Of a DNA stretch of 64,000 bases, positions 19,461 through 49,022 are shown piece by piece. The position numbers and the translations under genes were made by a program. Positions within the stretch are counted from its first letter, which is position 1. Every line of letters starts with the position of its first letter. This stretch comes from a virus: positions 2,236 through 66,235 of the IMG/VR virus record IMGVR_UViG_3300009703_000014. One strand, written 5' to 3'. The notes below the pieces were generated by a model. That model made no database searches and was not told the DNA's origin. It was given only the letters and a program-made list of their open reading frames with translations.

Positions 19461-20137
19461 TGTCAATAATACTGCAGTACTTTAAAAAACGTAAATCTCC
19501 AAGCGGGGGATGAGTAGACTTAACAGCGGTTCAAAATAGTTTAGGCCCCTATGATTTTAAGTTTAGGGTGAGCAGTGGAAGTGGTGCATACGTTAACCCT
19601 TCTTTCAGCACAGTTTGGGCTACTTTATCGAGCGTTGGGGGGGAGCCTGTTTACTATGGAAGTTTTTATACAAACGCAGAGTGTACGCAATCTCTTTCAG
19701 GAGGTACATATAACCCTGTATGGGCAAAAGTAGTGGTTCCTATAAACTTTAGTGAGGGTTTTGAGGTAAATACTATATCGTTTCATTATACTTTTTTTAG
19801 TACAAATGAATCAAGTAGTCAAGTTTTTAGCTGTGATATAACGCCCCCAATACATACAACAGGCGTTTTAACAGTGTCTTCTGTTAGCGGTGGGTCAATT
19901 CCCGATGGGACTTGAACTGTTAAAAACGATCCTATAATATCTGCTATGCTGCAAGATGCTACTACCTCCCCTAAGGGAGTGTCTATGATTGTATGTAGAG
20001 GAGAAAATGATATATTACCTGACGAAGACGAGGTGACTAATGACGGAGGAGCTTTTATTGAAGCTTATTACCTATTTGGGGAAAATTATGGGTGTACATG
20101 AAATTATGATGACGACGGATCTTTACCGTCTGGATAA
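19460..20137 (+). CDS. Hypothetical tail protein (225 aa, 3 TGA=Trp)
   Basis: TAATG-coupled start; continuous frame to TAA 20135. Confidence 0.7.
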
Positions 20138-20155
20138 AACAATGGAGAATAAATA

Positions 20156-22006
20156 ATGGCAACATTACCAGAAGGAACAAATATAATTAAAGTAAAGGCA
20201 GTAGACGCCGTAGGTAACTGAACTACAGTAGATGGTGTAAAATCACATACAATAAAAGTAGACACCGTAGCACCTGCAGCTACTAATGCTGCAGGAACTA
20301 CATTTAATGCTTGAAGTAATGCCGACCCGGGAGATTCAACAGCAGTAATAGGCTATAACGCTCCACAATGTGAAATAGGTGGAAAAGTCGTTGCTCCTGG
20401 AAGTGGAAGCTGGCTTAGCAGCGCAAACGATGGTGACCTGTCTTTTAGCATATGAACAGTAGACTCTAATTTAAGTGGGACAGCTCCTAAAACCGACTCC
20501 TCTGGGTTAAAAGCTGTTGCTTCTTCTGCGGCGAGTCCTGCTACTGTAACTTTACATAATAGTTCAGGGGCCGAAATCAAAGTAACTAGATTAACAACTC
20601 CTGCGAAAAACGGCGGCGAATGAGGACAATTATCTAGTACGAATATAGGTGATCTGGAAAGCGACGTACCAGAATGCTCTGCAGCTTCTCCAAATTATAT
20701 AGTAGTAAAGGGTGTGAAAGATAAGGCAGGTAATGTGTCCGGCGATTCTCCGCAGTTTCCAGTTTTACGAGATACCTCCGCCCAAGTATACGGAACTCCA
20801 AACTATCAAGTTAGCAACGACAGCACTAACTGATCAGCACCCTCAGGTTTATGAATTAATACTAATGATTTTGAAATTGCATGGAATGTTCAAGACCAGT
20901 ACTCTGGACCTGAAAAAATTGATATAAGTTTTTGGTTCAATGCTACTAAAGAAGGGGAAGCAACGAACGCGAACGTTGTTGGGCTTAATGTGGGAGGCAC
21001 CGCAGTCCAAACTATTACAGCAAGCACAAATACCAATGGTTTGGCCAATACTACAGCCATTCCTGATTCTCTAGACATTAGTAATGCTGGCATATCGCAG
21101 CTTTCTTTTAAGTATGCTTTAGAGGATGTTGCGGGTAACAGATCAACGTATTCTCAAAACATAGTTTTAAAGAAAGACACTGCAGCGCCAACCGTAACAA
21201 GTTTGTCTAATAATTTTTTATGAGTGCATTACTATACTGATATAAATGCTGATCCAGGCTCTTGATGGTCTAATGATGACACTCCTACAGTCAGTTTTAT
21301 TCTAGAAGACCCGTCTTCTGGAGTAGTTCCAGAAGACATTAAATACGCATACTGTCCCGATGTGGGCAACTCTCCAGCATTTTTGGGAAATAATGGGGTC
21401 GAAATATCGCCTACTAAAAATGGATTTAATGGGAAGGTAGTACTATACAGCCTCTCAGGAATAAGTGGGGGCTCAGATATAGATACTTCAGGGGCTGTGC
21501 CTTCAGTGTATAAAGAGGGTACTCCTGACTCTGGTAACTATGATACTCTTGTATCTGGCAGTACTCCTGTTCAAAGGGTAAAGGTTGAATTTACAACTCC
21601 CGCGTATACAACCGCGTCTGGCCATAGTGCCTCTGATAACTTATGAGCTAATTTATGAATAGGATGGAGGGACGCTGCCGGTAATGCAGATTATCGTTGG
21701 GGGTGGATTGATATTGATTCTGCTGCAGATGTGCCTAGTATTGCAGCTTTTACGGACTCAGGGCAGGGCACAAGCATTAATGATGGCGATTGAACACAGG
21801 ATACTACTCCTTACTTTGTACTAGGGGCTGAAAGCACTCCTGCTACAGCAATTTCAGGATTTTCGATTTACACAGAAGACCCCAACTCTACAGCAGGTTT
21901 AGTTCCAGATGAGGACATTGAAATTTATGCTACTAATAATTCAGGAAGCTGGGATGTGGCGACTGCTTCAGGCATCTACAACGACGAAAATAATGATGCT
22001 GTGTAA
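20156..22006 (+). CDS. Ig-like repeat (Big-type) virion protein (616 aa, about 11 TGA=Trp)
   Basis: Repeated D(A/K/V)(A/V)GN...(V/K)DT(V/A)AP Ig-linker motifs; GGAG RBS; almost invisible in the standard-code ORF track. Confidence 0.8.
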
Positions 22007-22440
22007 TGGCTCAATTTCAAAATGGAATAAATACGCTAAAAGTTCGCATAGTAGATATATTTGGTAATGTGTCTAGGATGTATGGGAGCCTTGATCTTTT
22101 TGTAGACTCAGGCAATCCCGCAATTATGGGTTTTAATGCCACTTTTTTAAAAGAGAACTCTGCCCAAGTTAAGGTAGGGTTTTCTGCTATAAGTGATGCT
22201 TTTTCTGGACCATCTACTATTTGAAAAATTGAATTAAAAACTTTAGAGGATACTTTATTGTCTACTACAAGCATATTAACAGAGATAAAAGAAACTGTCT
22301 TAAATGTGAATGCAGCATATCCTCTTATTAAAGTAGTTGGAAGCTTCTTTGATGTTGCAGGCAACACCACAAGTATTGAGCGTATAATATCTAAATCTTC
22401 TTCTGTCCATTCAGGGCAGCAAGGTATCTCAGGCTTATAA
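22006..22440 (+). CDS. Ig-like virion protein (144 aa, 1 TGA=Trp)
   Basis: DIFGN...VDSGNP and DVAGN motifs; TAATG coupling at both ends. Confidence 0.7.
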
Positions 22441-24284
22441 TGTCAATCTCCACAAACAGAATAATTTTTGATCACACTGTAGCAGGTAAAAAGTATGTGG
22501 TGAAAATCAAGCCCATTAGATCAGATGGGAGGAATACCTCATATACTGATTATGTCAAAGTAGTAAGCGGCGATATATCTCCTTTAAGTACTTTGACTTC
22601 CTTATCGTCCTCTTTTACAGGAGCAGAAACCGAGAATGCAGTCTCTGCCTCAATCAATAACTTTAATTACCCTTTAGAATATCTCAACACTCACTGACGT
22701 TTACAAAAAACCTCTGATAAAGTACAAATTAATTCCTTTTTAACGACTGCTGATATAGGTGTCGGAGACGCTGCTATACCTTATACGTCTTTAAGCGGAG
22801 TAAGCCAAGCAAGCTCCCAAGTACGAGCAATGGATTATATTTGAATGGATGACGAGTTGATTCAAATAACTTCTGTAGATGCATCACAGTGAGAAGTCAC
22901 TAGAGGAGCTTTAAATACTGCAGCTTCTACCCATTTGGCTGATTCAGCTATTTATAAAGAGGTTCCACCCCATGCCTACAGTGTGCCGACTACAGTCAGC
23001 GATACCCTGACCGAAAGCTTTCAAACTACACCACAAGACACTTCTTTTATATATGCAAGATGGCAAAATAAATTTGGGTATTTATCGGAGTGGGAGTTAA
23101 TACATAAAGGGACCGCCCCCAAATCAAACGCACAAAATTTAGCAGAGTCCTCATTAAACGAGTTTTCGACTCAAGTAGGAAATAACCTATTACAAAATTG
23201 GTCCTTTGAAAACGTAAAAGGAACAGGGGTTGACGCAAAGTCTTGGGATATAACACCTCCTACATATTCTAATGTATCTACCTTAAAGTCTTTTACATAC
23301 TCTGGTTTAGGGCTGTCGTATGATTACTACTTGGGAGACCGTTTAGGGGCTTTTTCTGCCGGGATTACGGTTGGAGCTTCTGGAGAGTGGGGCGCCTTTA
23401 CTCCGCATGAAAGTACCTTATCTACTTCTGTAGTGTTGCATCCTAATGTTACAAAATACAGCTTGCATTTTAGATCTGCTTATGGAATACTTCCTACAGA
23501 TTTAAGCGCAGCCTATATAGGTAACCTGCCGCCTTTAAATAAAGCCCCTATTATAAAAGCATTGCTTTATGAATATACGGACATAGATGGCACTACACCG
23601 AACGGCACTATAGTACAGTCCTCGGATGCTTTTAAGCTAGCTAATATAAAAGGTAAGAGTTTCTCTGCCTCTTTTAGTAACTTTGATTCTTCTACTAAAT
23701 CTTTTAGAATAGGATTCAGGCTGAGCGTATACAATAAAATCCCTATAACATTTACAGGTTCTATTCAGAATGGAGGGACTATAGGGGCCTCTGTAGGGAA
23801 TATATGGGCATATTTAGATGCAGCAAGTTTGTGTACAGGCGAACTACGAGCAGGGTTAGGACCTTTTATATTAACAGAAGATCACCAAAGTGCCGCGGAT
23901 ATAGCTGAAAAATATATATGTAGAGGAAATGCAGAAGAGGGAGATATAGTTTGCTTTGATGAGCCTATTAATGGAAATCCCTCTGTTAGAGTAGCAAACA
24001 AGGAGGCCGCTGATGGCAGGCCTTTGATGTGTGTGTCAGAAAACTACTTTTTTAGTCTACAGGATGAAATGAGCAAGGCCCCTGAAAACTTTAACACTAT
24101 AAATATAGGTTTAACAGGCAGGGTGCTCTGTAAAGTGCAAGGCCCCATACAGGTGAATGACCCCATAACTTTATTAGACAAGGGCATAGGAACTAAAGCT
24201 AATAAGGGCGACTACGTTTTAGGATACGCTATAACAAACCATTTAGAAGAGACAGCTGGAGCAGTATACCTACTAGTAAAATAA
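22440..24284 (+). CDS. Tail fibre/spike with C-terminal intramolecular-chaperone-like domain (614 aa, 3 TGA=Trp)
   Basis: I[W]MDDELIQIT...[W]EVTRGALNTAASTH motif; C-terminal ADIAEKY...GDIV...LTGRVLCKV.GPI..ND...GYA pattern. Confidence 0.75.
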
Positions 24285-24285
24285 T

Positions 24286-25335
24286 ATGCCTACAAAAAAT
24301 GTAAAACAAACTATATCTATAGTCCCTATAATTAAAGCGGATAAATTATCTGAACTTTCATGGGAAGGGTCAGATGAGTCTCTTTTATGGAGAATGCTTG
24401 ACCCACTTATAACGAGTGTAAACTTGCTCGAATCGGATGTAAGTAACTTTCAAGGAGCTATAGATAAGCTAGAAGACTATACCTACATTAGTGGTTTAGA
24501 CGCTGACTACCTATCAAAAACCAATACTATACTTTATACCCCTACATTAGATTATCACCCTGCAACAAAAAAATATGTTGACGATTCTTCTGGGGGCAGT
24601 GGGTCCTATACACTTCCTACAGCCAGTTCTTCTGTATTAGGGGGCATTAAGATAGGTGCAAATTTAAGCATAGACGGTTCAAGTGTTTTATCTTCCACAG
24701 ATACTAATACAACATACTCAATACAAGACGGGGAGCTTTCTCAGAATAATTTAACTACTGCGTTAAAAGGTAATTATGATACTGCTTATACACACTCCCA
24801 AGCCTCTCATGCTCCATCTACCGCAGAAGCAAATGTACAATCAGATTGGAACTCTGCTAGTGGCGATTCACTAATACTTAATAAGCCGACGTTGCAAAAA
24901 GGATGGCACGGACATACGGATAGAGTTAAATTGCTGGTTACGGATTTTTTACCGTCTGATGCGTCTTCTACTTACAATTTAGGTGTGTACGACTACAGCT
25001 TAGCCCTCAATGCCTTAAAAGGAATGTCGACTTCCTTAGACTTCTATGGTTATAAGGAGATTCCAAGCGGGTATAAAGCTACAAGTCTTACTTTGTATGT
25101 CTATCATAAGTTTGCTTCAGACTCCACAGCAATTACTGTGTATGAGGGGTTCATAGACTCTAGTACTGCAGTATCAAAGGGAACCGCTAACGCTACTGGA
25201 AGTCTCGCTAATTTTACATTTACATTAGATTTTGTAGATTTTAATTCGACTGATACTAATCAAATAATGATACATATAGATCCTGCCTCAACATTTAGGT
25301 TATATGGTGGCTACATATCAATATCAGAGATTTAA
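24286..25335 (+). CDS. Tail/head fibre protein (349 aa)
   Basis: YHPATKKYVD and YTLPTASSSVLGGIKIG fibre motifs. Confidence 0.75.
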   Translation: MPTKNVKQTISIVPIIKADKLSELSWEGSDESLLWRMLDPLITSVNLLESDVSNFQGAIDKLEDYTYISGLDADYLSKTNTILYTPTLDYHPATKKYVDDSSGGSGSYTLPTASSSVLGGIKIGANLSIDGSSVLSSTDTNTTYSIQDGELSQNNLTTALKGNYDTAYTHSQASHAPSTAEANVQSDWNSASGDSLILNKPTLQKGWHGHTDRVKLLVTDFLPSDASSTYNLGVYDYSLALNALKGMSTSLDFYGYKEIPSGYKATSLTLYVYHKFASDSTAITVYEGFIDSSTAVSKGTANATGSLANFTFTLDFVDFNSTDTNQIMIHIDPASTFRLYGGYISISEI

Positions 25336-25733
25336 TGTTTAGGCTGGCAATATTATTGTTATTATTTTTAAGTTGTGAAAATACCATAACAAATACTGTC
25401 TACGAACCTATACATTTAGAAGAAATATTTGAAACTAATGAAACTATACAATGAAATATTGATATGCAATATGGGTATTTTATTAAATCTTACTCAGAGA
25501 TAACACAGAGGGTAGACGGAGTATATGATTCTATTTGGTACCATACAAAATACTTTTTAGAAGACTCTTTACTATCAGAAGACTCTGTATTATATAGACA
25601 TGGGTGGGGTAAGTTTTGGGAAGTAACAGAGTTTCAAGAAGTCGGATCTAAAGGATTCGCAATAGGGGAATCAGATTTTTATCCAATGGTTTTCTCTTTA
25701 GATGTATACTCATGGATATCAATAGGAGAATAA
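25335..25733 (+). CDS. Putative lipoprotein (132 aa, 1 TGA=Trp)
   Basis: MFRLAILLLLFLSC lipobox-type signal, in frame with the 25464 piece through TGA. Confidence 0.65.
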
Positions 25734-25734
25734 T

Positions 25735-26160
25735 ATGGCAACTTTAAATACGGGTCTCGGCACATCTGAGATAACAGAAACCAGTCTAAGAAACTTAATG
25801 GATCACTTGTATGTTAGCGAAGGGGATAGCCTACACGCAGATGGGTATGAACTTAATGAGAACGGAGAGCCGACGGACATTCAATCTGTAAATATTATGA
25901 AAGTTGCGGAGAATATGCGCAGTCAGATAGAAGCTCTTCGAACTGAGGTTGAATTACTACATGCTTTTATTGTAGATGCCTTTGGAGTAGACAGCACTAG
26001 TGCCACCTCTCAAGGAGCTACAGGAGCTACAGGTCCGACGGGAGCTACAGGAGCAGCAGGAAACTCCCATTTAAGCAGCTGGTCTCTTACGGATGCGGGA
26101 CGGGGATCCCTCACTATAAGCGACGGGACAACTAGTTGAACTATTACTGGCGGGCGTTAA
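25735..26160 (+). CDS. Short collagen-like repeat protein (141 aa, 1 TGA=Trp)
   Basis: GATGATGPTGATGAAG G-X-Y run. Confidence 0.7.
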
Positions 26161-26236
26161 AATAAGTTTGATTTTTAGTTTGAAAATACTTATATTTAAG
26201 TATAAAGGCTTTTAACATATAACCGATAAAATAATA

Positions 26237-26443
26237 ATGGCAAAAAAAGAAAATACTTTAGAGACTAAATTAGAGAAGCTTACCTTAGAAAATAAGGGGC
26301 GTGTTGCTCAAGTAGAGCAGTGGAACACTAATATAGTACAATTAAAAGAGGAAATAAATAAAGCAAAAGAGGCACATGATTATACTAGGGGGCAGATAGA
26401 GCTCCTAACTCAGATGATTAGTGAGGCTGGTGACAATCAATAA
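26237..26443 (+). CDS. Small coiled-coil protein (68 aa)
   Basis: ORF track; heptad-rich; follows an AT-rich intergenic gap. Confidence 0.65.
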   Translation: MAKKENTLETKLEKLTLENKGRVAQVEQWNTNIVQLKEEINKAKEAHDYTRGQIELLTQMISEAGDNQ

Positions 26444-26711
26444 TTTAAAGTATATTTTTAAAAAGTTACTATACTTTTTAAATTATGCTTTAGTAGTGTA
26501 TATATTTTCTAAATTTACAAACGCTGATTCAGCTGAAATAAAAAAAATAAGAGCAAAAATTAAACAGCTTAGTGTAGAAAAAAAGCGTTTAGAAAGTAAT
26601 CTACACACCTTAAAAAGTAAAAAGGAGTTAAAGAGCATTGAAAAAGAAATTGAAAGAATGGTTCCTAAAGAAAAGATTGCTCTTTTCTCTGATTTGCTTA
26701 GTAAGCTTTAA
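26421..26711 (+). CDS. Membrane-anchored coiled-coil protein, possible spanin/lysis accessory (96 aa)
   Basis: N-terminal hydrophobic helix followed by coiled coil; lies upstream of the endolysin. Function is inference. Confidence 0.5.
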   Translation: MRLVTINNLKYIFKKLLYFLNYALVVYIFSKFTNADSAEIKKIRAKIKQLSVEKKRLESNLHTLKSKKELKSIEKEIERMVPKEKIALFSDLLSKL

Positions 26712-26997
26712 TGTGGCGCAGGAATGGGCAGATGACTCTACTATTGTATTTACAAAGGTAGAGTTTGATGCTCTTTTAGTAAAAATGCAGGACTGTGTGT
26801 CTACAAAATACTATTGGGAATCCCTGTCTCTACAGCAAGACTCTTTAATAAATTTGCAAGACTCCCTTATAGCTCAGTATGAATATAAGGATAACTTAGT
26901 GGCACCTTTTTATAAACAAAAGTGGTTCCATAATTTAATGTTTACTTTAACAGGAATGGTAATAAAAGACAAAATAGAGGAAGCAATTAATGACTAG
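26638..26997 (+). CDS. Exported/membrane protein, possible lysis accessory (119 aa)
   Basis: Signal-like N-terminus and hydrophobic C-terminal segment; overlaps the previous gene. Confidence 0.5.
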   Translation: MKKKLKEWFLKKRLLFSLICLVSFNVAQEWADDSTIVFTKVEFDALLVKMQDCVSTKYYWESLSLQQDSLINLQDSLIAQYEYKDNLVAPFYKQKWFHNLMFTLTGMVIKDKIEEAIND

Positions 26998-27256
26998 ATT
27001 TTCTGTAAATATTGACCCAATATCCAATACTACAAATCTTTCTGTGCAGGTAAATGATCATAAATTAAAAAAAACACATATACTGGATAAGGCGGCTAGT
27101 TCTTTAACTTCTGCAAAAGCATATGCAGACCAGTTTATAATAGGGGTGAGGCGTCAGATGGGTGACGAGCAGTCTTCAAAACTGTCCCCCTCCGTTTCCA
27201 AACCGGAGTGCGTGGGTTCGATTCCTACCACCCCTGCAAACAAGGTAAATATATAA
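26990..27256 (+). CDS. Hypothetical protein (88 aa); 3' third overlaps the tRNA(UCA)
   Basis: ORF track; GAGG RBS; its TAA overlaps the endolysin ATG. Confidence 0.5.
   Translation: MTRFSVNIDPISNTTNLSVQVNDHKLKKTHILDKAASSLTSAKAYADQFIIGVRRQMGDEQSSKLSPSVSKPECVGSIPTTPANKVNI
27142..27236 (+). tRNA. tRNA-Trp(UCA), opal-decoding, with atypical 26-nt variable region
   Basis: Acceptor AGGGGTG/CACCCCT plus G73 (A1-U72, G73, as in bacterial tRNA-Trp); D stem CGTC/GACG; anticodon arm GCAGT-CT[TCA]AA-ACTGT; T arm GTGGG-TTCGATT-CCTAC. Confidence 0.88.
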
Positions 27257-27858
27257 TGATAAAAATATTAAAAATTATAATGGATTTAATACGGGTTTTT
27301 TTTAAAGGGAAGCCTCTTGTATCTCATACCCCCCTTAAGATACAAGATATTTCTAAAGAGCTTTCTTGACACCCAACACGTACTTGAAGTAAGCGCGCCT
27401 TATCAAGTATTAAAAAGATTGTAGTACATCAAAGCCTTACTTCGTATAAAAACTCTTCGCTTTCAGCTATAAATAGCTACCACATTAAGCCCGGAAAGCA
27501 AAACCATATAAGCCCTAATGGGGCTCCTCATATTTGCTATCACTTTGGAATAGACGGTGACGGCAACACATTTCAATTAAATAATTTAAGTAGTACAGTG
27601 TGGCATTGTAAGGGACAAAATACAGCCGGCATAGGTATCTTAATATTGGGGGACTTTGACGGCCCCTCTTACACTGGGAAAGACGTAGAGCCTACAGAAG
27701 CCCAACTTAAAAGCCTTGGAGCCCTTATTAATAATTTGCTTTCAAGGGAAAATTTAGCTATATCTAAACAAGACACTTACGGGCATGCTGATTTTGGTAA
27801 GGACAATTGTCCAGGTACTGTCGTAAGCAACTTTATAGACAAATTTAAAAACACTTAG
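27256..27858 (+). CDS. Endolysin, N-acetylmuramoyl-L-alanine amidase (Amidase_2/T7-lysozyme type) (200 aa, 2 TGA=Trp)
   Basis: IVVHQS...YHFGIDGDG...WHCKGQN..GIGILILGDF...GHADFGKDNCPG zinc-amidase motifs; TGA at 27367 and 27385. Confidence 0.88.
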
Positions 27859-27869
27859 AGGATAATAAA

Positions 27870-28928
27870 ATGAATAAAATAGCATCTATGAATCTTGATG
27901 TAGTAGACTTTATCTTAAATGATGTAGAAAAACTGGCATCCGTAGTAAATGGTTTAACAGACAGCACAAAAACAGCACATATTCCCAGCTTTGAAGAGCA
28001 GCAGGATATGCCAGACAGAAATTTTGCTTTAATCTTATTAAGCAATCAGGCAGCCGACTTACATAAATTTGCTATGAACTCGGCTGATTTAGTAGAACTT
28101 AACTTAGCTTTCTTGTCTAATAATGTAGAGTCTCTTCCAGACGAAGTTATTAAGATTGCTGGGGCTAATTTAACTAAAGCCGCAAACGATTATAATGTGA
28201 GTATACCAGCAAACTTAGAAGAATTTTCTTCTAATGTATATGTCGATAACAGGCTTTTAACTACAGACATTAACGAGCTAAATTATGTAGTTAAGTGTGC
28301 GCAAGAGGGTGACGTAAATTTTGCTTGGGAAGGTGAGAAAAAGTATCCTTTAACCGATGCATCCACTGTTAAAACTGCGTCCGCTTACTTTGCGAAACAC
28401 CATCAAGCGATGGATATGGATAAAAAATTAGAATTTGTATTAAATACAGAACGTGCTGCTAAAAACTTTGGGGTAGATATAGACAATACTGCTATAGATA
28501 AATATGCTAGCTTGGATAGAAGCAGGTTTAACCCCATACTTCATGACCATATTAAAGTAAGGCAGTCTTATATTAAAGATGACGAAGATATAGCTATCTA
28601 CGACGACCTATATAATAAAATCGACGCCGCATCGCCTACTAAGGTAGCACAAGCTTTGAATATCATAGATAAGGAATTTGATTTGGAGCGTATGTACGGA
28701 AAGGGGATAGAGGATCCTTTAATGGCCTGTTTAGGATCTGTTAAAAGAGCTGGATTAAATATTGAAGGATCTATGATAACGCAAGATGATTTAAATGGCC
28801 TCGATAGCGGAGACTTAACAGTTATAGTTGGAAATGACGCGGTTAAAGCGCTTAAAGGGGATGAAGGGGTGCATGTATTAAATTCATTACCAACTCCTGT
28901 TAAACGTGAGGTTTTAGAACTTTTATAA
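27870..28928 (+). CDS. Hypothetical protein, possibly virion-internal (352 aa)
   Basis: ORF track; GAGG RBS; several KxAS motifs. Confidence 0.7.
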   Translation: MNKIASMNLDVVDFILNDVEKLASVVNGLTDSTKTAHIPSFEEQQDMPDRNFALILLSNQAADLHKFAMNSADLVELNLAFLSNNVESLPDEVIKIAGANLTKAANDYNVSIPANLEEFSSNVYVDNRLLTTDINELNYVVKCAQEGDVNFAWEGEKKYPLTDASTVKTASAYFAKHHQAMDMDKKLEFVLNTERAAKNFGVDIDNTAIDKYASLDRSRFNPILHDHIKVRQSYIKDDEDIAIYDDLYNKIDAASPTKVAQALNIIDKEFDLERMYGKGIEDPLMACLGSVKRAGLNIEGSMITQDDLNGLDSGDLTVIVGNDAVKALKGDEGVHVLNSLPTPVKREVLELL

Positions 28929-29470
28929 TGCGTTTCTTTTTAGCAAGTTTTTTATGCTCTATGCTTTTAGGGCAAACTTTAAATATAGAAACATATAACC
29001 ACACAGTAAAGGAAGGAGAGTCATTATCCAGTATTAGTGAGGGGTATGGAGTTAGTTGGGCATCTATTTATCACCTAAATGCCCACTTAATAGGAGTGGA
29101 TGCTGACCAAATAAAAGAGGGCCATACTTTAAATATTCCTTTAAATAGCTATTATACGGCGGAAGGGTACCATTTTGAGTTAAGAGCTTTTTTATGTTTA
29201 TTTGCGCTATTTATATTTCTTTGGAATATAAAACCTGTGTATAAACACGGAAGCGTTCATACCAAAACTATTATAGATAGACAAAGTAACAGCGCGCCTG
29301 CTAAGTCACGTGAAAACGAAAGTACACATGAGGTGGCCATTGAAGCGGGTTTAGGTAATACGTCTTGAAAAGCTATTGAAGCTAAGGACATTCAGTTACC
29401 TTCAGAGTCTGTGAAGTCTGGTTTAGACCAAGCAGCTTTAAAAGAAAAATTAAAAAAAATCAGGAAATAA
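28928..29470 (+). CDS. LysM-domain exported/membrane protein (180 aa, 1 TGA=Trp)
   Basis: HTVKEGESLSSISEGYGVSWASIYHLN...IKEGHTLNIP is a LysM motif; signal peptide and a TM helix. Confidence 0.8.
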
Positions 29471-29473
29471 CTT

Positions 29474-30460
29474 ATGAAAGGTTTAGATTGTGGTACAGGT
29501 AATTTTGTATGTGCGTCAGAGAAGGGAATTAATCTACAAAGGAACTCTTTTTTGACAATTGATAAAAGCACAACAACCACAAAGCAATTAAAATTATTGA
29601 GGGTTCCTTATGTAGAATTAGGGGATCAATTACACATAGTAGGTAAAAAGGCATTTGAGTATGCTCAAGTGTTTGGCAATGCAGAGCTTAAAAGACCTAT
29701 GTCTAAAGGGCTTTTAAATCCCACAGAGCAACACGCATTTCCTGTACTTAAAGTAATTATGCAAGAGTTGTTAGGCACTCCTAGTCAAGAAAATGAAGGG
29801 GTTGTTTATTGTGTCCCTGGGAAGCCTATAGACCAAGAAAGGGAAGTAGAATACCACCAAGACATCCTAAAAGATATTATTGAAAGTCTAGGTTTTAAAG
29901 CTAGAGCAATTAATGAAGCAGTCTCATTAGGTTTAGCGGGGTTAGCCGATGACGGGTTAACAGGGATTACGATTTCTATGGGAGCCGGCATGTGTAATAT
30001 TGCTATTATGTATGCGGGTATGTCTGCCTTACAGTTTAGTGTTGCCAAAGGCGGGGACTGGATTGATGAGAATGTAAGTAGGGATTGTGGTATATCTACC
30101 GCAAAAGCACAATACATCAAAGAAAGTGGAGATTATACCATAGACCCGGCATCACCTGTAGGTAGGTCTAGAGAACAGCAGGCTGTAAAAACTTATTATG
30201 AAGTACTGATTAGATACTTAATGGCTAATATAGCTAAACAGTTTGAATCAGAAGATATGCCTAATTTTCCAAACGAAGTGCCTATTGTTATAGGGGGCGG
30301 AACTTCTATGGTAAACGGGTTTATTGAGGTATTTAAAGAGCAATTTCAACAAAAACAATTTCCTCTAGAAATAAGTGATATACGACACGTAGAGGAGCCC
30401 TTAACGGCGGTATCTCGAGGATGTTTAGTGGATGCCCAACTTGAGGAGGAGGAGGGCTAA
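29474..30460 (+). CDS. Actin-like ATPase (ParM/MreB/FtsA superfamily) (328 aa)
   Basis: Phosphate-1 GLDCGTGN, connect AINEAV, phosphate-2 ISMGAGMCN and adenosine IGGGTS motifs. Confidence 0.85.
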   Translation: MKGLDCGTGNFVCASEKGINLQRNSFLTIDKSTTTTKQLKLLRVPYVELGDQLHIVGKKAFEYAQVFGNAELKRPMSKGLLNPTEQHAFPVLKVIMQELLGTPSQENEGVVYCVPGKPIDQEREVEYHQDILKDIIESLGFKARAINEAVSLGLAGLADDGLTGITISMGAGMCNIAIMYAGMSALQFSVAKGGDWIDENVSRDCGISTAKAQYIKESGDYTIDPASPVGRSREQQAVKTYYEVLIRYLMANIAKQFESEDMPNFPNEVPIVIGGGTSMVNGFIEVFKEQFQQKQFPLEISDIRHVEEPLTAVSRGCLVDAQLEEEEG

Positions 30461-30820
30461 ATGAGCGCTAAAGCAACTTTTGTATTTGAAAAACTAGCAG
30501 GCAGTAAAAAAAAGAACTTTATGAGTGAAGGTAAGAAGGATATTATTTCAGGGCTGGCTGCAGGAGCTGTCACTACTGGAGCTACTTTTCCTTTAGATAC
30601 TATGACTACCGCAGCTCAGTCAGGATATGCCGCTGATCTAAAAAAGAGTTTAGGCAAAACCTTAACTTTTAAAACCGTACTTAAAAACCCTAAGTTAATC
30701 CCTCACCTTTATAAAGGTATTCAGTATAAATGGTCAAAAACTATTCCAGGCACTGCTATATCTTTAGCAACCTATGCCGGTACTAGGCGATTCTTAGATA
30801 AGAAATTTCCTAAGCAGTAA
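30461..30820 (+). CDS. Single mitochondrial-carrier (Solcar)-like repeat membrane protein (119 aa)
   Basis: IISGLAAGAVTTGATFPLDTMTTAAQ and LYKGIQYKWSKTIPGTAISLATY match the odd- and even-helix patterns of SLC25 repeats. Confidence 0.65.
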   Translation: MSAKATFVFEKLAGSKKKNFMSEGKKDIISGLAAGAVTTGATFPLDTMTTAAQSGYAADLKKSLGKTLTFKTVLKNPKLIPHLYKGIQYKWSKTIPGTAISLATYAGTRRFLDKKFPKQ

Positions 30821-31305
30821 TGGATATTACAGACTTATTACAGAATGAAGATGTGGTGGAGCCGGAAACGCTTCACATGCTTTTTCCAAATTTAACTCAA
30901 ATGGAAAAGCAAAAGGTACTTGCTATTAAAGTAATACATAATAATAGATGTGCCTTTGAAGACATGGATGTATTTGAAAATATAGTCTTTGTTTTAAATG
31001 GAATAGACCCCAATGTTACTATCATGGAGGGTTCTACCCCTGAATTTATTTGGAAAGCTTTAGATACCATCAGACAAATCCACCCCAAAATTGAGTTTGC
31101 TGAAGAAGTCAAAGAATATATAAAAAGTATATTTTTGGACCAAGGGTACAAAGTGTTTCCACCTAAATCAGGCATAGATAGCCCCCTTTTAGAGCAAGTG
31201 GAGGATCGTGCATTACACGGTCCTTTTCCTTTAGAAGAAGATGATATAGGAATACAAGCCTTAAGATATTTAAAAACAATGGAATATATTAAAACAGGGG
31301 AATAA
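30820..31305 (+). CDS. Hypothetical protein (161 aa)
   Basis: ORF track; TAATG-coupled. Confidence 0.7.
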   Translation: MDITDLLQNEDVVEPETLHMLFPNLTQMEKQKVLAIKVIHNNRCAFEDMDVFENIVFVLNGIDPNVTIMEGSTPEFIWKALDTIRQIHPKIEFAEEVKEYIKSIFLDQGYKVFPPKSGIDSPLLEQVEDRALHGPFPLEEDDIGIQALRYLKTMEYIKTGE

Positions 31306-31307
31306 AA

Positions 31308-33182
31308 ATGCCAGTAAAGCATATTACAGAAGCAGAGTCCACTAGGGCACGTAGCACAAACTACCCGAACCCTTTTTTCGATTTAGCTAATAATTACATA
31401 CCTAAAAATATAAAAACTTTATTTAAATTTTGTAGAAGTTTCTTTTACACTAACGGATTTTTACGGAATGTAATTACGAAACTTACTGAGTATCCTATTA
31501 CGGACTTACTCTATTCAACAACTATAGACGAAGCTACACGAGATTTATACGATCAGGCCTTACACCGTAAACTAAAAATCAAGAGCCTTTTAATTGAAAT
31601 CGGGCTGGACTATTATACTTACGGTAACGCTTTTGTATCTACCCATATAAAAAGTAAACGATTCATTAAGTATCCTGATGGTCAAATGATCCCTATCGAC
31701 CAGGCCACTATTAAAGTAAAAAACTTTGAATTTTATGCATCTAAACAAGGTGTAAGTGATGTAAAAGTTGAGGTTGTAGACGAGCCTATTAAGTCCATTG
31801 ATAATTTTAAATTACTGAGATGGGCTCCAGAAAATATAGATATAGACTATAGCCCCATAACAGGCGACTCAATATATTACTATACTATTCCTTCTAAGAT
31901 AAAGGCGGGGATAGCTGCCGGAAATATAGCCATTTTGCGAGATATACCTCTAGTTTTCTTAGACTCTCTACGACAAAAAAAGCGTATTATACTCGATGAA
32001 AACAACTTGTTTCATTTTAAGCGTCCTACGCTTGCTGAAGACGACATGGGATGGGGAAAACCTTTAATTCTTCCAGCTTTAAAAGATATTTATTATTTAC
32101 AAACACTAAAGCGTGGAAATGAGGCCATTTCAAATGAGCACATAATTCCTAAAAAAGCGATCTACCCTGCTAATACCACAACGCTAGACCCATATACCCA
32201 AATGAATCTCGGTAAGTGAAAAGGTCAGATGGAACAGCAAATTAAAAAATGGAGACAAGACCCTAACCACATAGGAGTTTTTCCAATCCCTATTGGATAT
32301 CAAGAGTTAGGTGGAAACGGCAGAGCTTTGCTATTAACGCCAGAAATGAAATTTATTGAGGAGTCTATTATTAACAGTATGGGTGTTCCTTTAGAATTTA
32401 TTAAGGGAGGGGCTTCTTGGACGGGTTCTAGCATTTCTTTGAGAATTGTAGAAAATCATTTTTTAACATATAGGGAGTTTTTAACAGAATTTTTAAATCA
32501 TTTTGTAGTACATAAATTAGTACATTTATTAAACTACCCTAAAGTAGACGTACGTTTTAGTAAATTTAAAATGTCGGACGATGCCCAAGCTAAACAGCTA
32601 GCTATTAATTTAAACGCATCTGGCAAGATTTCAGACTCAAAATTACTAGACGAGTTTGGGTATAATTATGAGGAGGAGGCCACTGCTATCAAGCGTACGC
32701 GTTTAGACATGATGAATGATGCTATTTTGCAGTCTGAGAAAGACGCCGAAGCGCAAGGCAAGTCTCAAATAATTTTAAGTAAATACCAAACAAGAGCTCA
32801 AAAAGCGGGAGAAGATGAAGCTTTTAGATTAAAAGCAGAGATCTTTGAAAAAGAGCTTATGCAAGAAAATCAAGGAATACCTGAAGACCCCATTAAGCTT
32901 ATAGAAAAATATGCTTATGAGATACATGGGCTGGATCCTGTTAATCAGCAGAAAAAAATGGCTCAATTAATTAAAAAAGCTCCAATTACATACGGCCTTG
33001 TTTTGGAGAGATTGCAGCTTATACAAATGGAAGCAAACCAGGTTATGGCAGCTTCAGCAAGCATGGAAGAGCCTTCTTTAGACACAGCTCCTAACGAGAA
33101 AGGAGTAGGAAATAGAGAGGGAGATAAAGTTAAGTTGCGTGAAAAAGAAAAAACAAAAGGCCAAACAAGAGGTAGTGTTTAA
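31308..33182 (+). CDS. Portal protein (624 aa, 1 TGA=Trp)
   Basis: Portal-like blocks (LIEIGLDYYTYGNAF, LFHFKRP...WGKPLILP, IINSMGVP). The two ORF pieces join as MNLGK[W]KGQMEQQ. Confidence 0.8.
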
Positions 33183-37927: not shown

Positions 37928-38425
37928 CTATGGTTGGTTTAATTTAATTTCTGTGTTGCAGTACATAAACAAAAATCGTTTACATTCGTTTAACAGAACT
38001 TTAATTTGTTTTTTTAGTCCACCAGGCGAGGTGGTTCCTAATTTTCGTGTTATTGTAACTTCTTTTTTTGTCCATGAGTATTCAAAATTTATCTTTTTTG
38101 ATATCATTTGCTTCTCAAAAGAGGCGGGGAAAGTTTGTTTTAGTTGTAGGTTTGGCCTGCCGTTAGACATGTCAAGCAACAACTGCATAAACCCCGTTTT
38201 TAATGTATCTTTTTTATTTAGTAAGAGAGTCAGATTATTTACGTCACTAAATTCAGTGAATATAAATAGAGCTCCTTCTGTCTCAACCCAGCCGAAAGGC
38301 AGGTAGCAAGACGTTTCTTTTAGCCTATCAAACTTTTTACTTAGCAGAACTAAGTTTTTAGCGTCATTTTGCCAAGCTGTGTCAAAAACTGGTTTCCTCT
38401 TACTGGGTGTAAGCTTTTTATCCAT
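37928..38425 (-). CDS. Hypothetical protein overlapping the RT 3' end (up to 165 aa)
   Basis: ORF track; 76-nt overlap with RT, start uncertain. Confidence 0.6.
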   Translation of the reverse strand: MDKKLTPSKRKPVFDTAWQNDAKNLVLLSKKFDRLKETSCYLPFGWVETEGALFIFTEFSDVNNLTLLLNKKDTLKTGFMQLLLDMSNGRPNLQLKQTFPASFEKQMISKKINFEYSWTKKEVTITRKLGTTSPGGLKKQIKVLLNECKRFLFMYCNTEIKLNQP

Positions 38426-39252
38426 TCGCAGTATCCTCTCATTTGCTGATATTCTTCTAGAGAAATTGTTTTTTGATCTCTATTGATGTTGTGTAATTTT
38501 GCTCTGAAGTTACGCCACTTCCATTTTGGAACGCTTAACTTCTTATTTACAACCACCCCTGTAATGCTCATGCGTTGGTTGGGTTTTCGTATCCGCGTCT
38601 TCTTAGGATTTACTTTCAGGTCTGCCATTTCTATAAATTCTGTGATAGGTTTTATATGTGTCCCCATTTTTTCACTTTTATCCGAGTGGCTAAAGGTGAG
38701 GTCATCAGCATATCTCGTGTAGAGAAGCCCATGGATTTCGCTGTATGTGCTTAAATTGTGATCTAGAGCTATACAGTATAAGTTTGCCAATGCCGGTGAT
38801 GTGGGGGATCCTTGTGGAAGCTGTCCCTTATAAGTAACCAATTTTACAAAAACTTTCAAATCCTCTCTTGTAAAAGTAAAAGAGGGCTCTATTTTCTTAT
38901 ACCTATTAAATAGGGAAAACCCCAATTTATAAACGTTTGCCGTTTTAATAGAATTGAAGAAGTTCGATAGGTCCATGCAGAGTAAAGCGTCTCGCCCTAA
39001 GTGCCTTAATGCTCCGTCTGCAACGCCAATGCCCGACACAAAACCTACAGCTGCGTCATGAGCACTGAAGTTATATAAAAAGGAATATAAAATTCTACTT
39101 TGTATCTCCTTTAATTCGTCTAGGGGGGCGTCTAGCCAACGCTTCTTTCCACTTTTTTTGCTGATGGGGTACGATAAGTAGTTTTTCCCTTGGTCGGAAA
39201 TTATGCCCATAGCCTCTTGTTTGCTTGTCTGTATGCATTCATAAAAATCCAT
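38350..39252 (-). CDS. Retron-type reverse transcriptase (300 aa)
   Basis: ISKKSGKKR..AP...LK.IQ, HDAAVGF, GALRH (NAxxH-like region X), DLSNFF, LPQGSPTSP, YTRYADDLTFS, ITGVVVN (VTG-like region Y); AGGAG RBS. Confidence 0.92.
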   Translation of the reverse strand: MDFYECIQTSKQEAMGIISDQGKNYLSYPISKKSGKKRWLDAPLDELKEIQSRILYSFLYNFSAHDAAVGFVSGIGVADGALRHLGRDALLCMDLSNFFNSIKTANVYKLGFSLFNRYKKIEPSFTFTREDLKVFVKLVTYKGQLPQGSPTSPALANLYCIALDHNLSTYSEIHGLLYTRYADDLTFSHSDKSEKMGTHIKPITEFIEMADLKVNPKKTRIRKPNQRMSITGVVVNKKLSVPKWKWRNFRAKLHNINRDQKTISLEEYQQMRGYCEWIKSLHPVRGNQFLTQLGKMTLKT

Positions 39253-39269
39253 AAAAACTCCTTTTTTTT

Positions 39270-39550
39270 AATTACAATCATACTACTAGGCCAGCTTCTC
39301 GGAAGGCGTCCGCTTCCGAGAGTTGCCGTGTTGTTGTTTCGTGTTGTCCCACACGAAGTATTTAGTATTATCTTAAGAAAAGCGAAGCGCCTTTCGTAGA
39401 CTTTGTTTTTATAACGTAGTCGTATTAGTCTATAACTGTACTAAACAGTAATCTTTTAATATGATTGATTACGGTTATTTTAGGTACTATGCCAGACGAA
39501 TCGTTCTGGGTACCGTATTATATAATACAGTGCGTACTACAGTTAGTTTT
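39270..39550 (-). ncRNA. Structured ncRNA upstream of RT (msr-msd-like)
   Basis: Hairpins TCTCGGAAG/CTTCCGAGA, TTCGTGT/ACACGAA, GAAAGGCG/CGCTTTTC, GGTAC-CCAGA/TCTGG-GTACC; inverted repeat CAATCATA (39275-39282) / TATGATTG (39460-39467). Confidence 0.65.
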
Positions 39551-39554
39551 TTTG

Positions 39555-41090
39555 TTACACTACTGAAAAAATAATTTCAGCTACTTTGTCAGCGGAAGAC
39601 TGTCTTATATCGTCTAACTTGCTAATCTTGTCCGAAAACTCGTTAATGGCGCAATCAGTATTATAATCCACATCAACCAGAACAGAGTGTACTATTACAT
39701 TTTTTTGCTTCTTCCAGGAAATGAAATCATATAACCAACTTTTCCTGACTGCGGAGTTTCCATCCGTAATAAACACAATGTCCGCTTTTTTAAATTCTTT
39801 GTGGTCGTTTATTGTGTCTTTGGCGAGATCTAGCGGTGGCTCGAATTGGGTACCGCCGCTTGCGAAAAACTCCGCCATGTCTAAAACCTCTGATACATTA
39901 TAGGCATCAGATTTTAGAAAGTTGTTGGTGTGAAGCATGTGCTTGGGTGAGGCATCGAAGTGAATAACGTGCAAGCTTCTGTTTTCAGCTCTAGCTATTT
40001 CTAGCAAACCCATGGCTACTCCTTTAGCCCATATTTCAGGCTCTCCGTGCATACTTCCACTACTATCAATACACACTACAATGGGACCTTTTGCCTTTTT
40101 TTCCTTACCAGCATACTTATATTGTAATAAGTTACTTTCCACATAATTCTTTTTGAACGATGTTTTTAGCAGAGGGTGCGACAGCTTTGACATCTCAGTC
40201 GGAATCAGCTTTCCTATGTCCTTCCCAAGTTCTATATCATAAATGCTATTTACACCTTTTGATATTTTGTTCTTGAAAGTACTAAGGGCTAAAGACTTAT
40301 AGCGGCCCATTAAAGCAGCTATTTCCTTTAACTTTTTGGAAGTATTCAGGGTTTCCAATAATTTTAGTTTTTCTTGATACCCGCTTTTTTGATAGTTAGG
40401 GTCCTGCTCTAGCCCCCAGTTAGCTATCATCTCTGAAGTTTCCTGGGTTTTGGAAATTGCCTTATCTAGCATCCTGTTTATCTGTCGTTTTTCTTTCTTC
40501 TCTACGACATTTAAAGTGTTTAGAGTATCCTCGAGGTGTTTTTGAGCGTCCTCTAAACTTATCTGTTCTTGGGATTTTCCTTCCCCAGTCCCGTTGTTCT
40601 CCTTTTCTGCATCACCTCCTGCAGCTTGTTCCTTGTCGGCAGCATTCTCTGCGGCACTCTCTAGGTTTTTAAGCGCTTCATCGAACTTGTCCTTAAGGTC
40701 TTTAACCAAATCCTTAACCTGTTCCCCAACTACTTCGGTACCCACGGCAGCATTTAGCTTGTCAAGCCTAGTCATTCCTCTTAGTTCCTTATATTGAGGG
40801 CTGTCCATAACGGCATCCATCACCTGGCTATTTAAACTATATTCGTAAGCTATATCTTTGTCGTCGAATTTTTCGGGACTATACTTATATAAGCTATCGA
40901 AAACGTCTTGGTGGAGATGCTCGAACTGTGGGTACATATCTGTGCCGGACATGTAAGTGGCGGCTATTTTTGGATTTTTTAGTAGAAGCTCTTTGAAAGC
41001 GTGTATGTCGAAATTGTCATACTTCACGCTATACTTCTCGGATTTTATTCGTTTTAGAATACTTTTTGCTTTTTCTGACAATGTTTTCAT
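39555..41090 (-). CDS. vWA-domain protein, ViaA/CoxE-like (511 aa)
   Basis: MIDAS IDSSGSM, GGTQFEPPL, IVFITDG. Confidence 0.88.
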   Translation of the reverse strand: MKTLSEKAKSILKRIKSEKYSVKYDNFDIHAFKELLLKNPKIAATYMSGTDMYPQFEHLHQDVFDSLYKYSPEKFDDKDIAYEYSLNSQVMDAVMDSPQYKELRGMTRLDKLNAAVGTEVVGEQVKDLVKDLKDKFDEALKNLESAAENAADKEQAAGGDAEKENNGTGEGKSQEQISLEDAQKHLEDTLNTLNVVEKKEKRQINRMLDKAISKTQETSEMIANWGLEQDPNYQKSGYQEKLKLLETLNTSKKLKEIAALMGRYKSLALSTFKNKISKGVNSIYDIELGKDIGKLIPTEMSKLSHPLLKTSFKKNYVESNLLQYKYAGKEKKAKGPIVVCIDSSGSMHGEPEIWAKGVAMGLLEIARAENRSLHVIHFDASPKHMLHTNNFLKSDAYNVSEVLDMAEFFASGGTQFEPPLDLAKDTINDHKEFKKADIVFITDGNSAVRKSWLYDFISWKKQKNVIVHSVLVDVDYNTDCAINEFSDKISKLDDIRQSSADKVAEIIFSVV

Positions 41091-41099
41091 ATTACTCCT

Positions 41100-42233
41100 T
41101 TAAGTAAAGCTCACGCCGCAAGCTTCGTTATATACTTCTGTAAGATACTGGTCTATTTTTGATTCTAAAGCTCTTACTTCTTTAGTATCTCGACCCTTTT
41201 CTTTTATGCTCAAATAATAAGAATTCATCTTTTTCTTCGCATCTTTTAATTTTACAGCTACCTCTACACCTTTTTTAAGGCGGTTAGCATCGTTATTTTC
41301 TATACTCATTACAGAGTCATATAAATCTTGAGCGTCGTCGAATAATTCCATAATTTTATTCTTTTCAGGATTTATCAGATCTAGTATAGCTGAGTAAACA
41401 TACTTAGCTTCGTCAGGATCTGACCACATTACGTGCTGTAAAATGTCTAAGTCACCTTCTAAGACGGTATCTCTTTTTTGGTAGTAAGCTTCTGCTTTCA
41501 ATAAGTTGATACAGCCCTTATAAGATCTATCTGAAACTTTGATACCTTTGTCATTTAGACTAGTCTTTAGGTTAGCAATTATTTCTATTATGTCTTTAGA
41601 AACTGTCACTTTTTTCACAGCTTTTCTTATAGAGAGGATGTCCTCTAAGCTGATCAATGGAGCATTTTTTATGGGCTCACTTTGCATCATTTTAACGAAG
41701 TTAGAAGACTCTTTGATTGGTTTAACCATGTACTTTAAGGTAAATCTGTCTAACATCGCTTCCAAGCCATCCCCTTCTTCGGGTAACTCATTAGAAGCCC
41801 CCACGAGGGTTAATAAGGGTATATTCACTGGTTTGCCGTCGTTAAAGAAAATCCGTTCATTCAGAATGGTTAGCAGGAAGTTTAAGACCCCTGAATTGCC
41901 TTTCCAAGTTTCGTCAATAAAGGCTATATCGGCCTCCGGTAACTTACCTGTGGTATTTCTTAAAAACTTGTCTGACTCTAAACCCTTTAGAGAGTATGGG
42001 CCTGCCAATTCCTCTGGCGTTGAGTATGCCGTTAAAAGCCAGCTGAAGTAGTTGCTTTTATCTATCAATTTTGCCCAGCTATTCACTAAGAGGGACTTTC
42101 CTACCCCTGGAGGGCCTAAGTATAATATATTGTTACCTGAAATAACTCCGAGAGTTAATCCATGTATCTCATCTGCCCTCTCTACGAAGTAGCTATTGAG
42201 TGTTTTTTCTATTTTTTGAAGTTTATCATGCAT
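41100..42233 (-). CDS. MoxR/RavA-type AAA+ ATPase (377 aa)
   Basis: GPPGVGKS Walker A, FIDETWK Walker B, GASNELP, LDRF; adjacent to vWA partner. Confidence 0.88.
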   Translation of the reverse strand: MHDKLQKIEKTLNSYFVERADEIHGLTLGVISGNNILYLGPPGVGKSLLVNSWAKLIDKSNYFSWLLTAYSTPEELAGPYSLKGLESDKFLRNTTGKLPEADIAFIDETWKGNSGVLNFLLTILNERIFFNDGKPVNIPLLTLVGASNELPEEGDGLEAMLDRFTLKYMVKPIKESSNFVKMMQSEPIKNAPLISLEDILSIRKAVKKVTVSKDIIEIIANLKTSLNDKGIKVSDRSYKGCINLLKAEAYYQKRDTVLEGDLDILQHVMWSDPDEAKYVYSAILDLINPEKNKIMELFDDAQDLYDSVMSIENNDANRLKKGVEVAVKLKDAKKKMNSYYLSIKEKGRDTKEVRALESKIDQYLTEVYNEACGVSFT

Positions 42234-48900: not shown

Positions 48901-49022
48901 TCATTACAGCAGCCTCTCAAGGACAATACTCTAACTTTAAGGGAAAAGACCCTATTCCCGCATACTTATATGGGGACGACTTTGGTAAAAAATCCGACCC
49001 GTCTAAGGGACACTTTTATTAA
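42948..49022 (+). CDS. Multisubunit-type RNA polymerase, fused beta-beta' polypeptide (2024 aa, 4 TGA=Trp)
   Basis: beta motifs (TPESGRVG, GNRASTAGRM, GYNFED-like GFNFEDG, GDKLSGRYGNK, NPHGVPARMNVGQ) and beta' motifs (GGLFDPEITGG, NRAPSLH, catalytic NADFDGD, TQLTMQTFH) in one frame; TGA at 43446, 45837, 46107, 47466. Confidence 0.9.

Follow-up and report, generated by a model that had tools for sequence, protein, structure and literature searches.

Carriers of the SLC25 family, the main metabolite gateway of mitochondria, are seen as a eukaryotic invention that arose through triplication of a two-helix unit. Legionella LncP and mimivirus VMC1, which lie outside eukaryotic nuclei, are full three-repeat carriers with canonical signatures. 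A 2026 preprint states that SLC25 carriers show no trace of prokaryotic ancestry, and our full-text literature searches turned up neither a paper on phage or prokaryotic carriers with one repeat nor a description of a natural one-repeat form of SLC25. Here we analyse a gene at positions 30461-30820 (+ strand) of a 64,000-nucleotide stretch of viral DNA (positions 2,236 to 66,235 of the IMG/VR record IMGVR_UViG_3300009703_000014; hereafter the window). Its 119-residue product (P0001) holds a single SLC25 repeat, where the canonical architecture has three in tandem, and the flanking genes abut it. Judged by its sequence, the phage protein is a genuine stand-alone single repeat of the SLC25/Solcar unit, and it adds a new architecture to a well-known family, in a host where such a protein was not expected. 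As an explanation of the whole, to which we give an even chance, we propose a one-repeat phage carrier unit that forms a trimer with threefold (C3) symmetry and probably serves as a head-addressed membrane module.

The single repeat and its family

The Pfam Mito_carr profile (PF00153) matches the phage protein with 41.2 bits (E = 1.4e-10), well above its gathering cut-off of 22.3 bits, and aligns residues 26-115 with profile positions 7-95, thereby covering 89 of the 96 positions; the same search gave no Mito_carr match in 14 control prokaryote genomes. Searched exhaustively with phmmer, 1.84 billion representatives yielded 111 matches at E <= 1e-3, about 22 of them short one-repeat proteins. 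The remaining matches are mostly proteins of about 300 residues with three matched stretches, and those three-repeat proteins that we looked up proved to be carriers of eukaryotes, namely Palpitomonas, Balamuthia (SLC25A16-like) and Tieghemostelium. Searched against the PDB, the profile of the 22-member family matches UCP2 (4.3e-21), the bovine ADP/ATP carrier (1e-20), UCP1 (2e-20) and yeast AAC2 and AAC3, aligning to each of the three repeats in all of them. A preliminary description of this DNA, made from the letters alone, had read a lone carrier repeat here and had suggested a PF00153 search, profile comparisons and a search for one-repeat homologues in related phages. The open reading frame (ORF) exists as it was given, every peptide stretch that was quoted is found in the translation, both profile searches are significant, and such homologues do occur.

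The ORF starts with an ATG placed directly after the stop of the upstream gene (TAA-ATG), ends with a TAA, and overlaps the next start with its own stop (TAATG). A Shine-Dalgarno-like, GGAGG-rich run read from the sequence at 30443-30456 (+ strand), within the last part of the upstream gene, argues for the first ATG as start codon. The ORF contains no TGA codon, so the reading of TGA as Trp in this phage, described below, leaves it unchanged. No RNA runs containing the locus were found. In the AlphaFold2 (AF2) model, an N-terminal amphipathic tag, K4-A13 (KATFVFEKLA; 30470-30499), which is conserved in most family members and is followed by a lysine-rich linker, precedes the carrier part. This comprises an odd-numbered carrier helix (residues 23-53; 30527-30619) with G31xxxG35, P44-L-D46 and the Gln brace Q53, a matrix-side loop with short helices at 56-64 and 70-83 that ends in Y84-K85-G86 (residues 54-86; 30620-30718), and an even-numbered carrier helix (residues 87-115; 30719-30805) with K90, K93, P96 and Y105-A-G-T-R109, all on the + strand.

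The motifs of this repeat fall into those that are kept and those that are lost, as seen from residue counts in one alignment of 22 family members and 96 eukaryote-type repeats. The structural motifs are retained, namely the odd-helix GxxxG, the Gln brace, [YWF][KR]G, the even-helix Pro and the Tyr brace. G31 is found in 21/22 family members and 93/96 eukaryote-type repeats (G35 in 18/22 of the family), the Pro kink P44 in 22/22 and 93/96, and Q53 in 22/22 and 63/96. Y84 and G86, present in 20/22 and 21/22 members, are likewise kept in the eukaryote-type repeats; P96 occurs in 19/20 and 88/96, and Y105 in 16/20 and 86/96. Among the short relatives P44 and Q53 are invariant, and G31, D46, Y84 and G86 nearly so. 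The charged gates present a different picture. The matrix-gate acid D46 is conserved (21/22; D or E in 89/96 eukaryote-type repeats), whereas the base of the same gate, at the position of T49, is Lys or Arg in only 1/22 family members against 85/96. The signature Px[DE]xx[KR]x[KR] is therefore incomplete, PLDTMTTA having the Pro and the Asp and neither basic position. On the cytoplasmic side, the acid at the position of A106 is present in 0/20 members against 87/96 eukaryote-type repeats, although the base of the motif is kept in 16/20, so that YAGTR departs from [YF][DE]xx[KR] by replacement of the acid. The Gly of the matrix-helix [DE]G, found in 92/96 eukaryote-type repeats, is absent from the family. 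The preliminary description had noted the loss of one charge from each salt-bridge motif (PLDTMT; YAGTR); this alignment to the canonical motifs proves correct, and since the loss runs through the family, the alignment marks it as a family trait and not as the decay of a single gene. Conversely, position 90 is basic in 21/21 family members and in 9/96 eukaryote-type repeats, and position 93 in 19/20 and about half, respectively. By our reading of the alignment, K93 lies at the even-helix substrate contact point of the bovine ADP/ATP carrier, and the pair K90 and K93 on the even helix appears as a family-specific feature.

One-repeat proteins of 105-175 residues form at least 20 sequence clusters, and internal divergence within the family reaches about 27% identity. 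Three short relatives (P0005, P0011 and P0067) exceed this size through unrelated low-complexity extensions. Wherever the contigs encoding short members were looked up, each was phage-like DNA, and the family has been found so far only in uncultured large phages. Searches of GenBank phages found no relative of P0001 or of the distant member P0110, a nucleotide search with the locus gave no match, and the close-family pattern found no homologue in 185,579 species genomes. When a profile of alignment A1 was run against a set of 5.8 billion proteins, three-repeat carriers dominated and no further short members were among the matches listed. P0036, a two-repeat match and the only multi-repeat protein that scores high with the family profile, was considered as a phage intermediate and rejected, being an intron-split eukaryotic carrier. 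A eukaryotic gene fragment or contamination is ruled out by the phage genes that abut the ORF on both sides in more than 10 independent contigs. A 175-residue member (P0105) is found in a phage of a different type (two contigs of 48-62 kilobases, kb), near a gene for ribosomal protein S21; these contigs also have a short terminase-like ORF that may be split.

Three copies of the protein were modelled together with ESMFold2 from alignment A1. The predicted assembly is a head-to-tail ring with an interface score (ipSAE, interaction prediction score from aligned errors) of 0.74 (range 0.72-0.76), against 0.00 for the best of 3 controls; of solved pairs, 20 of 30 attain the mark used for this score, and of single chains 1 of 23, counts that are only a rough guide here, given the custom alignment and the three copies. 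In the ring, residues 22-56 of one copy lie on residues 85-116 of the next, i.e., odd helix on even helix, and the contact takes in the GxxxG face (G31, G35) and, on the even helix, the small-residue face (G97, S101, T104/Y105). The predicted odd-to-even arrangement is the one that joins neighbouring repeats in the barrel of the published ADP/ATP carrier structures. The homotrimer that had been suggested from the sequence is thus confidently predicted, as a model. For the monomer, AF2 with a 116-sequence alignment that includes eukaryote-type repeats gave helices at residues 23-53, 56-64, 70-83 and 87-115 with a pLDDT (predicted local distance difference test) of 85. The top PDB match of this model is the ADP/ATP carrier 6gci (E 0.63; template modelling score, TM, by query 0.52), and its top 12 Swiss-Prot matches in the AlphaFold database (AFDB) are all SLC25 proteins, each matched on exactly one repeat (E 0.14-1; TM by query 0.50-0.62 for 11 of them and 0.38 for one). 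The Atlas's own model of the protein has a TM of 0.61 to a Mito_carr cluster.

The phage, its late operon and the N-terminal tag

The record comes from a subsurface metagenome and is 73,364 bases long, 35% complete by CheckV, which corresponds to a genome of about 210 kb. It encodes a Baseplate_J protein, tail-fibre-like proteins, an amidase endolysin and a portal protein, together with a multisubunit-type RNA polymerase, a reverse transcriptase and a MoxR/VWA pair. The portal is 31% identical to the annotated portal of Salmonella phage Arash and to an ORF without annotation that Vibrio phage D69 has at the corresponding position. The tail, endolysin and portal genes bear out the bacteriophage host that had been supposed for the carrier repeat. 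In the late genes of the + strand (window 19460-33182 and 42948-49022), TGA is read as Trp: with this reading, the portal becomes one 624-residue ORF (W304 = TGA) and the RNA polymerase one beta-beta' ORF of 2024 residues, and ARAGORN finds a tRNA with anticodon UCA at 27142-27237. In another carrier-bearing locus (L018), at least one tagged gene also needs TGA to be read as Trp. Two near-complete IMG/VR genomes, G002 (IMGVR_UViG_3300025602_000002) and G003, of 205 and 210 kb, carry the distant P0110-type member of the family, and both also have homologous actin-like, p161 and portal genes. On the - strand of the window, at 38350-42233, a reverse transcriptase (RVT_1) gene lies beside genes for a VWA protein and a MoxR-type AAA ATPase, and this trio recurs downstream of the portal region in three related loci (L011, L012 and L024).

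The carrier gene belongs to a TGA-recoded block of the + strand in which genes abut or overlap from 27208 to 33182, in the order endolysin, DUF6582 protein, LysM protein, actin-like protein, one-repeat protein, p161 and portal. The operon opens with an endolysin of the Amidase_2 type (27208-27858; PHROG endolysin, 3.9e-23), and an Amidase_2 gene holds the same position in relatives. It is followed by a 352-residue DUF6582 protein (27870-28928; PF20223, 1e-08), which is probably related to head morphogenesis and which co-occurs in Atlas clusters with the prohead protease S78 and DUF2213. On account of this association, we read the operon as a head module that begins with lysis genes. Next come a 180-residue LysM protein with one TGA read as Trp (28928-29470; PF01476 LysM, 1.9e-09) and an actin-like ATPase of the Volactin family, matched over its full length (29474-30460; PF25216, 264.6 bits). 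Downstream of the carrier lie the acidic, 161-residue p161 (30820-31305), for which we found no Pfam, PHROG or Atlas match, and the 624-residue portal (31308-33182; PHROG portal, 3.3e-11; identity to the Arash portal as given above), all of these genes being on the + strand. DUF6582 upstream and p161-portal downstream are the neighbours that stay constant from relative to relative; p161 follows the slot that holds the carrier or its tag in all loci of the lineage and in G002 and G003. The actin-like gene lies upstream of the carrier in six related loci (L002, L004 and L011-L014), the LysM gene is likewise present only in some loci, and both are absent at L024 and L016/L017. Within the module the carrier changes fastest, with 32-67% identity among relatives against 57-75% for the portal and 60-65% for the actin-like protein. 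Homologues of the actin-like protein are also encoded by the uncultured phages LR745208 and LR756511 (485 kb and 595 kb) and by G002 and G003. At the front of the operon, window 26237-27858 holds a 68-residue coiled-coil ORF, a 96-residue ORF with one N-terminal hydrophobic helix and a 119-residue ORF with a signal-like start, and then the endolysin; there is no obvious multi-helix holin among these small ORFs before the endolysin.

Most family members begin with the tag KAxxVFxKLA, predicted as an amphipathic helix over residues 3-14, and in relatives its fuller pattern is M(K)DKAxx[VI]FxK[LIY]A. Scanning G002 with a position matrix built from the family tags found 14 copies, against 0 in reversed sequences, and 13 of the 14 cluster at 172,982-182,082. 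About a dozen unrelated proteins of G002 bear it, among them the one-repeat protein, an SNF2-type helicase, a 578-residue Ala/Gly/Lys-rich protein with three internal copies, and proteins of no known kind. The fourteenth copy, at 73,732, starts a 90-residue basic protein that occupies the X position in the order actin-like, X, p161, portal, i.e., the slot that the carrier fills in the window; G003 is arranged alike. A tagged protein of another kind in this slot indicates that the slot conserves the tag rather than the carrier body, and the tag resembles an address or docking peptide that some product of the module would read. No conserved cleavage residue follows it (Glu stands there in about 60% of copies). 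In the 205-211-kb phages, a 578-residue Ala/Gly/Ser/Lys-rich protein with glycine-zipper-like hydrophobic stretches is encoded directly after the carrier gene (P0115; L018, 10354-12090). In P0011 and P0067 the carrier repeat is fused to Gly/Lys-rich tails that resemble it. Two further tagged proteins of L018 (13166-13888 and 17760-18413) share a stretch that gives the impression of a kinase glycine loop followed by VAK, and Pfam finds no kinase domain in either.

Proposed function and origin

In the mechanism that we propose, three copies would join head to tail in a six-helix bundle of C3 symmetry, in imitation of the pseudo-threefold barrel of the carriers. Both canonical salt-bridge gates being incomplete, an alternating-access exchanger is unlikely; a lysine-lined, anion-favouring pore or a static membrane module would be the likelier outcome. 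In the modelled ring, six lysines (K90 and K93 of three chains) would face the cavity and could form an anion-favouring pore or binding site. Because the tag is found on many unrelated proteins and also, without a carrier body, in the slot that precedes p161 and portal, the protein probably carries an address for a head-associated partner, with the prohead, the portal and the actin-like protein as candidates. The protein would then be made for, or delivered with, the virion rather than serve general metabolic transport.

Several results weigh against such a trimeric membrane unit. The protein is strongly basic, with 21 Lys and Arg against 6 Asp and Glu, and its two helices are weakly hydrophobic (Kyte-Doolittle maxima over 19 residues of 1.14 and 0.45), so that its insertion into a membrane in a bacterium is not assured. 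Within the 73-kb record of the window, the tag is confined to the carrier ORF. A memory of solved carriers in the model may lie behind the trimer score. With an alignment of 22 sequences AF2 returned a plain hairpin (pLDDT 77) whose Foldseek (PDB) and VIA-align wide matches are generic helical hairpins, with no carriers among them, and VIA-align wide with the 116-sequence model returned only generic two-helix membrane subunits. The carrier matches of that deeper model are partly circular, since the model was informed by eukaryotic repeats. A two-helix hairpin, in turn, is too simple a fold for the monomer searches to be informative as a refutation. The predicted structures are thus weakly supportive, and it is the sequence profiles that carry the case. 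Weak hydrophobicity suits a protein that stays soluble before it enters a membrane, yet it leaves insertion in doubt; together with the positive charge and the tag, it accords with a head-associated or delivered membrane protein no less well than with a resident transporter. The head-module context and the tag, neither of which the preliminary description had noted, likewise make a membrane role linked to the head or virion at least as likely as that of a free-standing metabolite carrier.

Three other functions were weighed against the head-addressed module. The homology to a transporter family, the predicted trimer and the conserved basic residues K93, aligned with a substrate contact point, and K90 would suit an auxiliary metabolite transporter, i.e., a homotrimer in the host inner membrane that works in the manner of SLC25 with a threefold-symmetric site and moves a small anionic solute (phosphate, a nucleotide or a dicarboxylate) late in infection. 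We hold this improbable: the family-wide incompleteness of both salt-bridge gates takes away what alternating access canonically rests on, the gene belongs to a late operon of head and lysis functions and does not lie among metabolic genes, and it is the fastest-evolving gene of a module whose portal is better conserved. The place of the gene, immediately behind the actin-like gene that abuts or overlaps it in the window and in the six loci named above, invites a different reading, in which the tag binds the filament of the Volactin-family protein in the manner of a ParR tail or a WH2 helix and the carrier helices anchor it as a membrane adaptor. The ORF directly after the actin-like gene in G002 and G003 also begins with the tag, and both of these near-complete carrier-bearing genomes encode the actin-like protein. 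However, the carrier follows DUF6582 directly in L024 and L016/L017, where no actin-like gene intervenes; LR745208 and LR756511 encode the actin-like protein and no carrier, and show no tag within 4 kb of its gene on either side; and in G002 the SNF2 helicase and many other proteins bear the tag as well. These points leave the adaptor with a similarly small share of our confidence.

A holin- or pinholin-like role is less probable still. A small two-helix protein of this kind would accumulate late and then permeabilise or depolarise the inner membrane, and the size, the charged ends and the GxxxG-type packing do recall small holins as they are generally known, in an operon shared with an endolysin and a LysM protein and lacking an obvious multi-helix holin in front of the endolysin. 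Yet three genes separate the carrier from the endolysin, its constant neighbours are p161 and the portal, the carrier of G002 lies among helicase and unknown genes, and the hydrophobicity of its helices is below that of typical holin helices. The head-addressed module can also be put in broader terms. Natural one-repeat carrier units may work as homotrimers, either as survivors from before the triplication or by independent reversion; more boldly, the protein might be loaded into the capsid by its tag and inserted into the host membrane at infection, there forming a lysine-lined, gate-less pore, e.g., to let nucleotides or ions through for the single-chain RNA polymerase that the phage itself encodes among its late genes. 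Taken jointly, these extensions seem to us rather unlikely.

With regard to origin, we give slightly better than an even chance to a single capture, by the ancestor of one phage clade, of a three-repeat carrier from a eukaryote or from a bacterium bearing a mitochondrial carrier family (MCF) protein, which was then trimmed to one repeat. In most of the contigs that can be placed, the portal and p161 genes are homologous, as are the actin-like genes where they occur, which points to one phage clade; the contigs of P0105 and P0010/P0011 could not be placed and are excluded from this statement. The lack of homologues in the species genomes (by the close-family pattern) and in GenBank phages agrees with a capture, as does the family profile, a hidden Markov model, which scores best on repeat 3 in 41 of 70 carriers, although all three repeats score similarly. 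Against it, a tree of 226 repeats (97 columns) sets the one-repeat proteins apart from the R1, R2 and R3 groups of the three-repeat carriers; after long branches and near-duplicates were dropped, 21 one-repeat proteins lie on one side of a branch with a support of 92 in the Shimodaira-Hasegawa-like approximate likelihood-ratio test (SH-aLRT), nested in no subfamily. Moreover, the identity of the phage repeats to eukaryote-type repeats, about 14-30%, is no higher than that between the repeats themselves. The same separation from R1, R2 and R3 would be expected of a lineage descended from the one-repeat ancestor of SLC25 before triplication, or from its sister, that survived in the prokaryotic virosphere, and the deep divergence within the family and the retention of structural motifs without the gates speak for it too. 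Descent of this kind nevertheless appears doubtful to us: the distribution is narrow, the deep branches are not settled by 97 alignment columns, and fast evolution after a capture would give the same picture. The narrow distribution thus favours a single capture, while a placement beyond R1, R2 and R3 alike leaves room for an older origin.

Comparison with known systems

Free single repeats that have the packing and brace motifs and lack the gates make the hypothesis of a one-repeat homotrimer directly testable, and the phage family shows which motifs serve assembly rather than gating. It also provides a data point on whether the carrier unit circulated in the prokaryotic virosphere, which bears on the origin of mitochondrial carriers. 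In phage biology, the family links a membrane fold of eukaryotic type with an operon of the head module and with an N-terminal address tag not described before.

Compared with SLC25 proteins (PF00153; 1okc, UCP1, UCP2), the phage protein has the homologous unit of about 100 residues, with GxxxG, the Pro kink, the Asp, the Gln brace, the matrix-side helix, [Y][K]G and the even helix with its Pro and Tyr brace. It differs in having one repeat per chain instead of three, in lacking the base of the matrix network, the acid of the cytoplasmic network and the matrix-helix [DE]G, and in the extra conserved K90, the N-terminal tag and its encoding by a phage of bacteria. With LncP and VMC1 it shares the occurrence of a carrier-family gene outside eukaryotic nuclei, whereas it is a single repeat and belongs to a tailed phage. 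SemiSWEET, which forms dimers, is a part-size transporter that oligomerises into the full fold seen in SWEET. The proposal for the phage protein is similar in that a stand-alone repeat would rebuild a pseudo-symmetric transporter by homo-oligomerisation; the fold is another one, and a trimer is predicted in place of a dimer. The capsid targeting sequence of phage T4 is found on the internal proteins IPI-III and Alt, and, like the tag described here, it is a short amphipathic N-terminal peptide on unrelated proteins, near head genes. In contrast, the phage tag lacks a conserved protease cleavage residue, the window has one tagged ORF, and packaging is putative. Finally, CysZ and YihY have been proposed as bacterial relatives of the ADP/ATP carrier from a likeness in structure with a circular permutation (bioRxiv 10.64898/2026.03.31.715626). 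Both that proposal and the phage family bear on a prokaryotic ancestry of SLC25, but the phage family, unlike CysZ and YihY, matches the carrier repeat directly by sequence profile.

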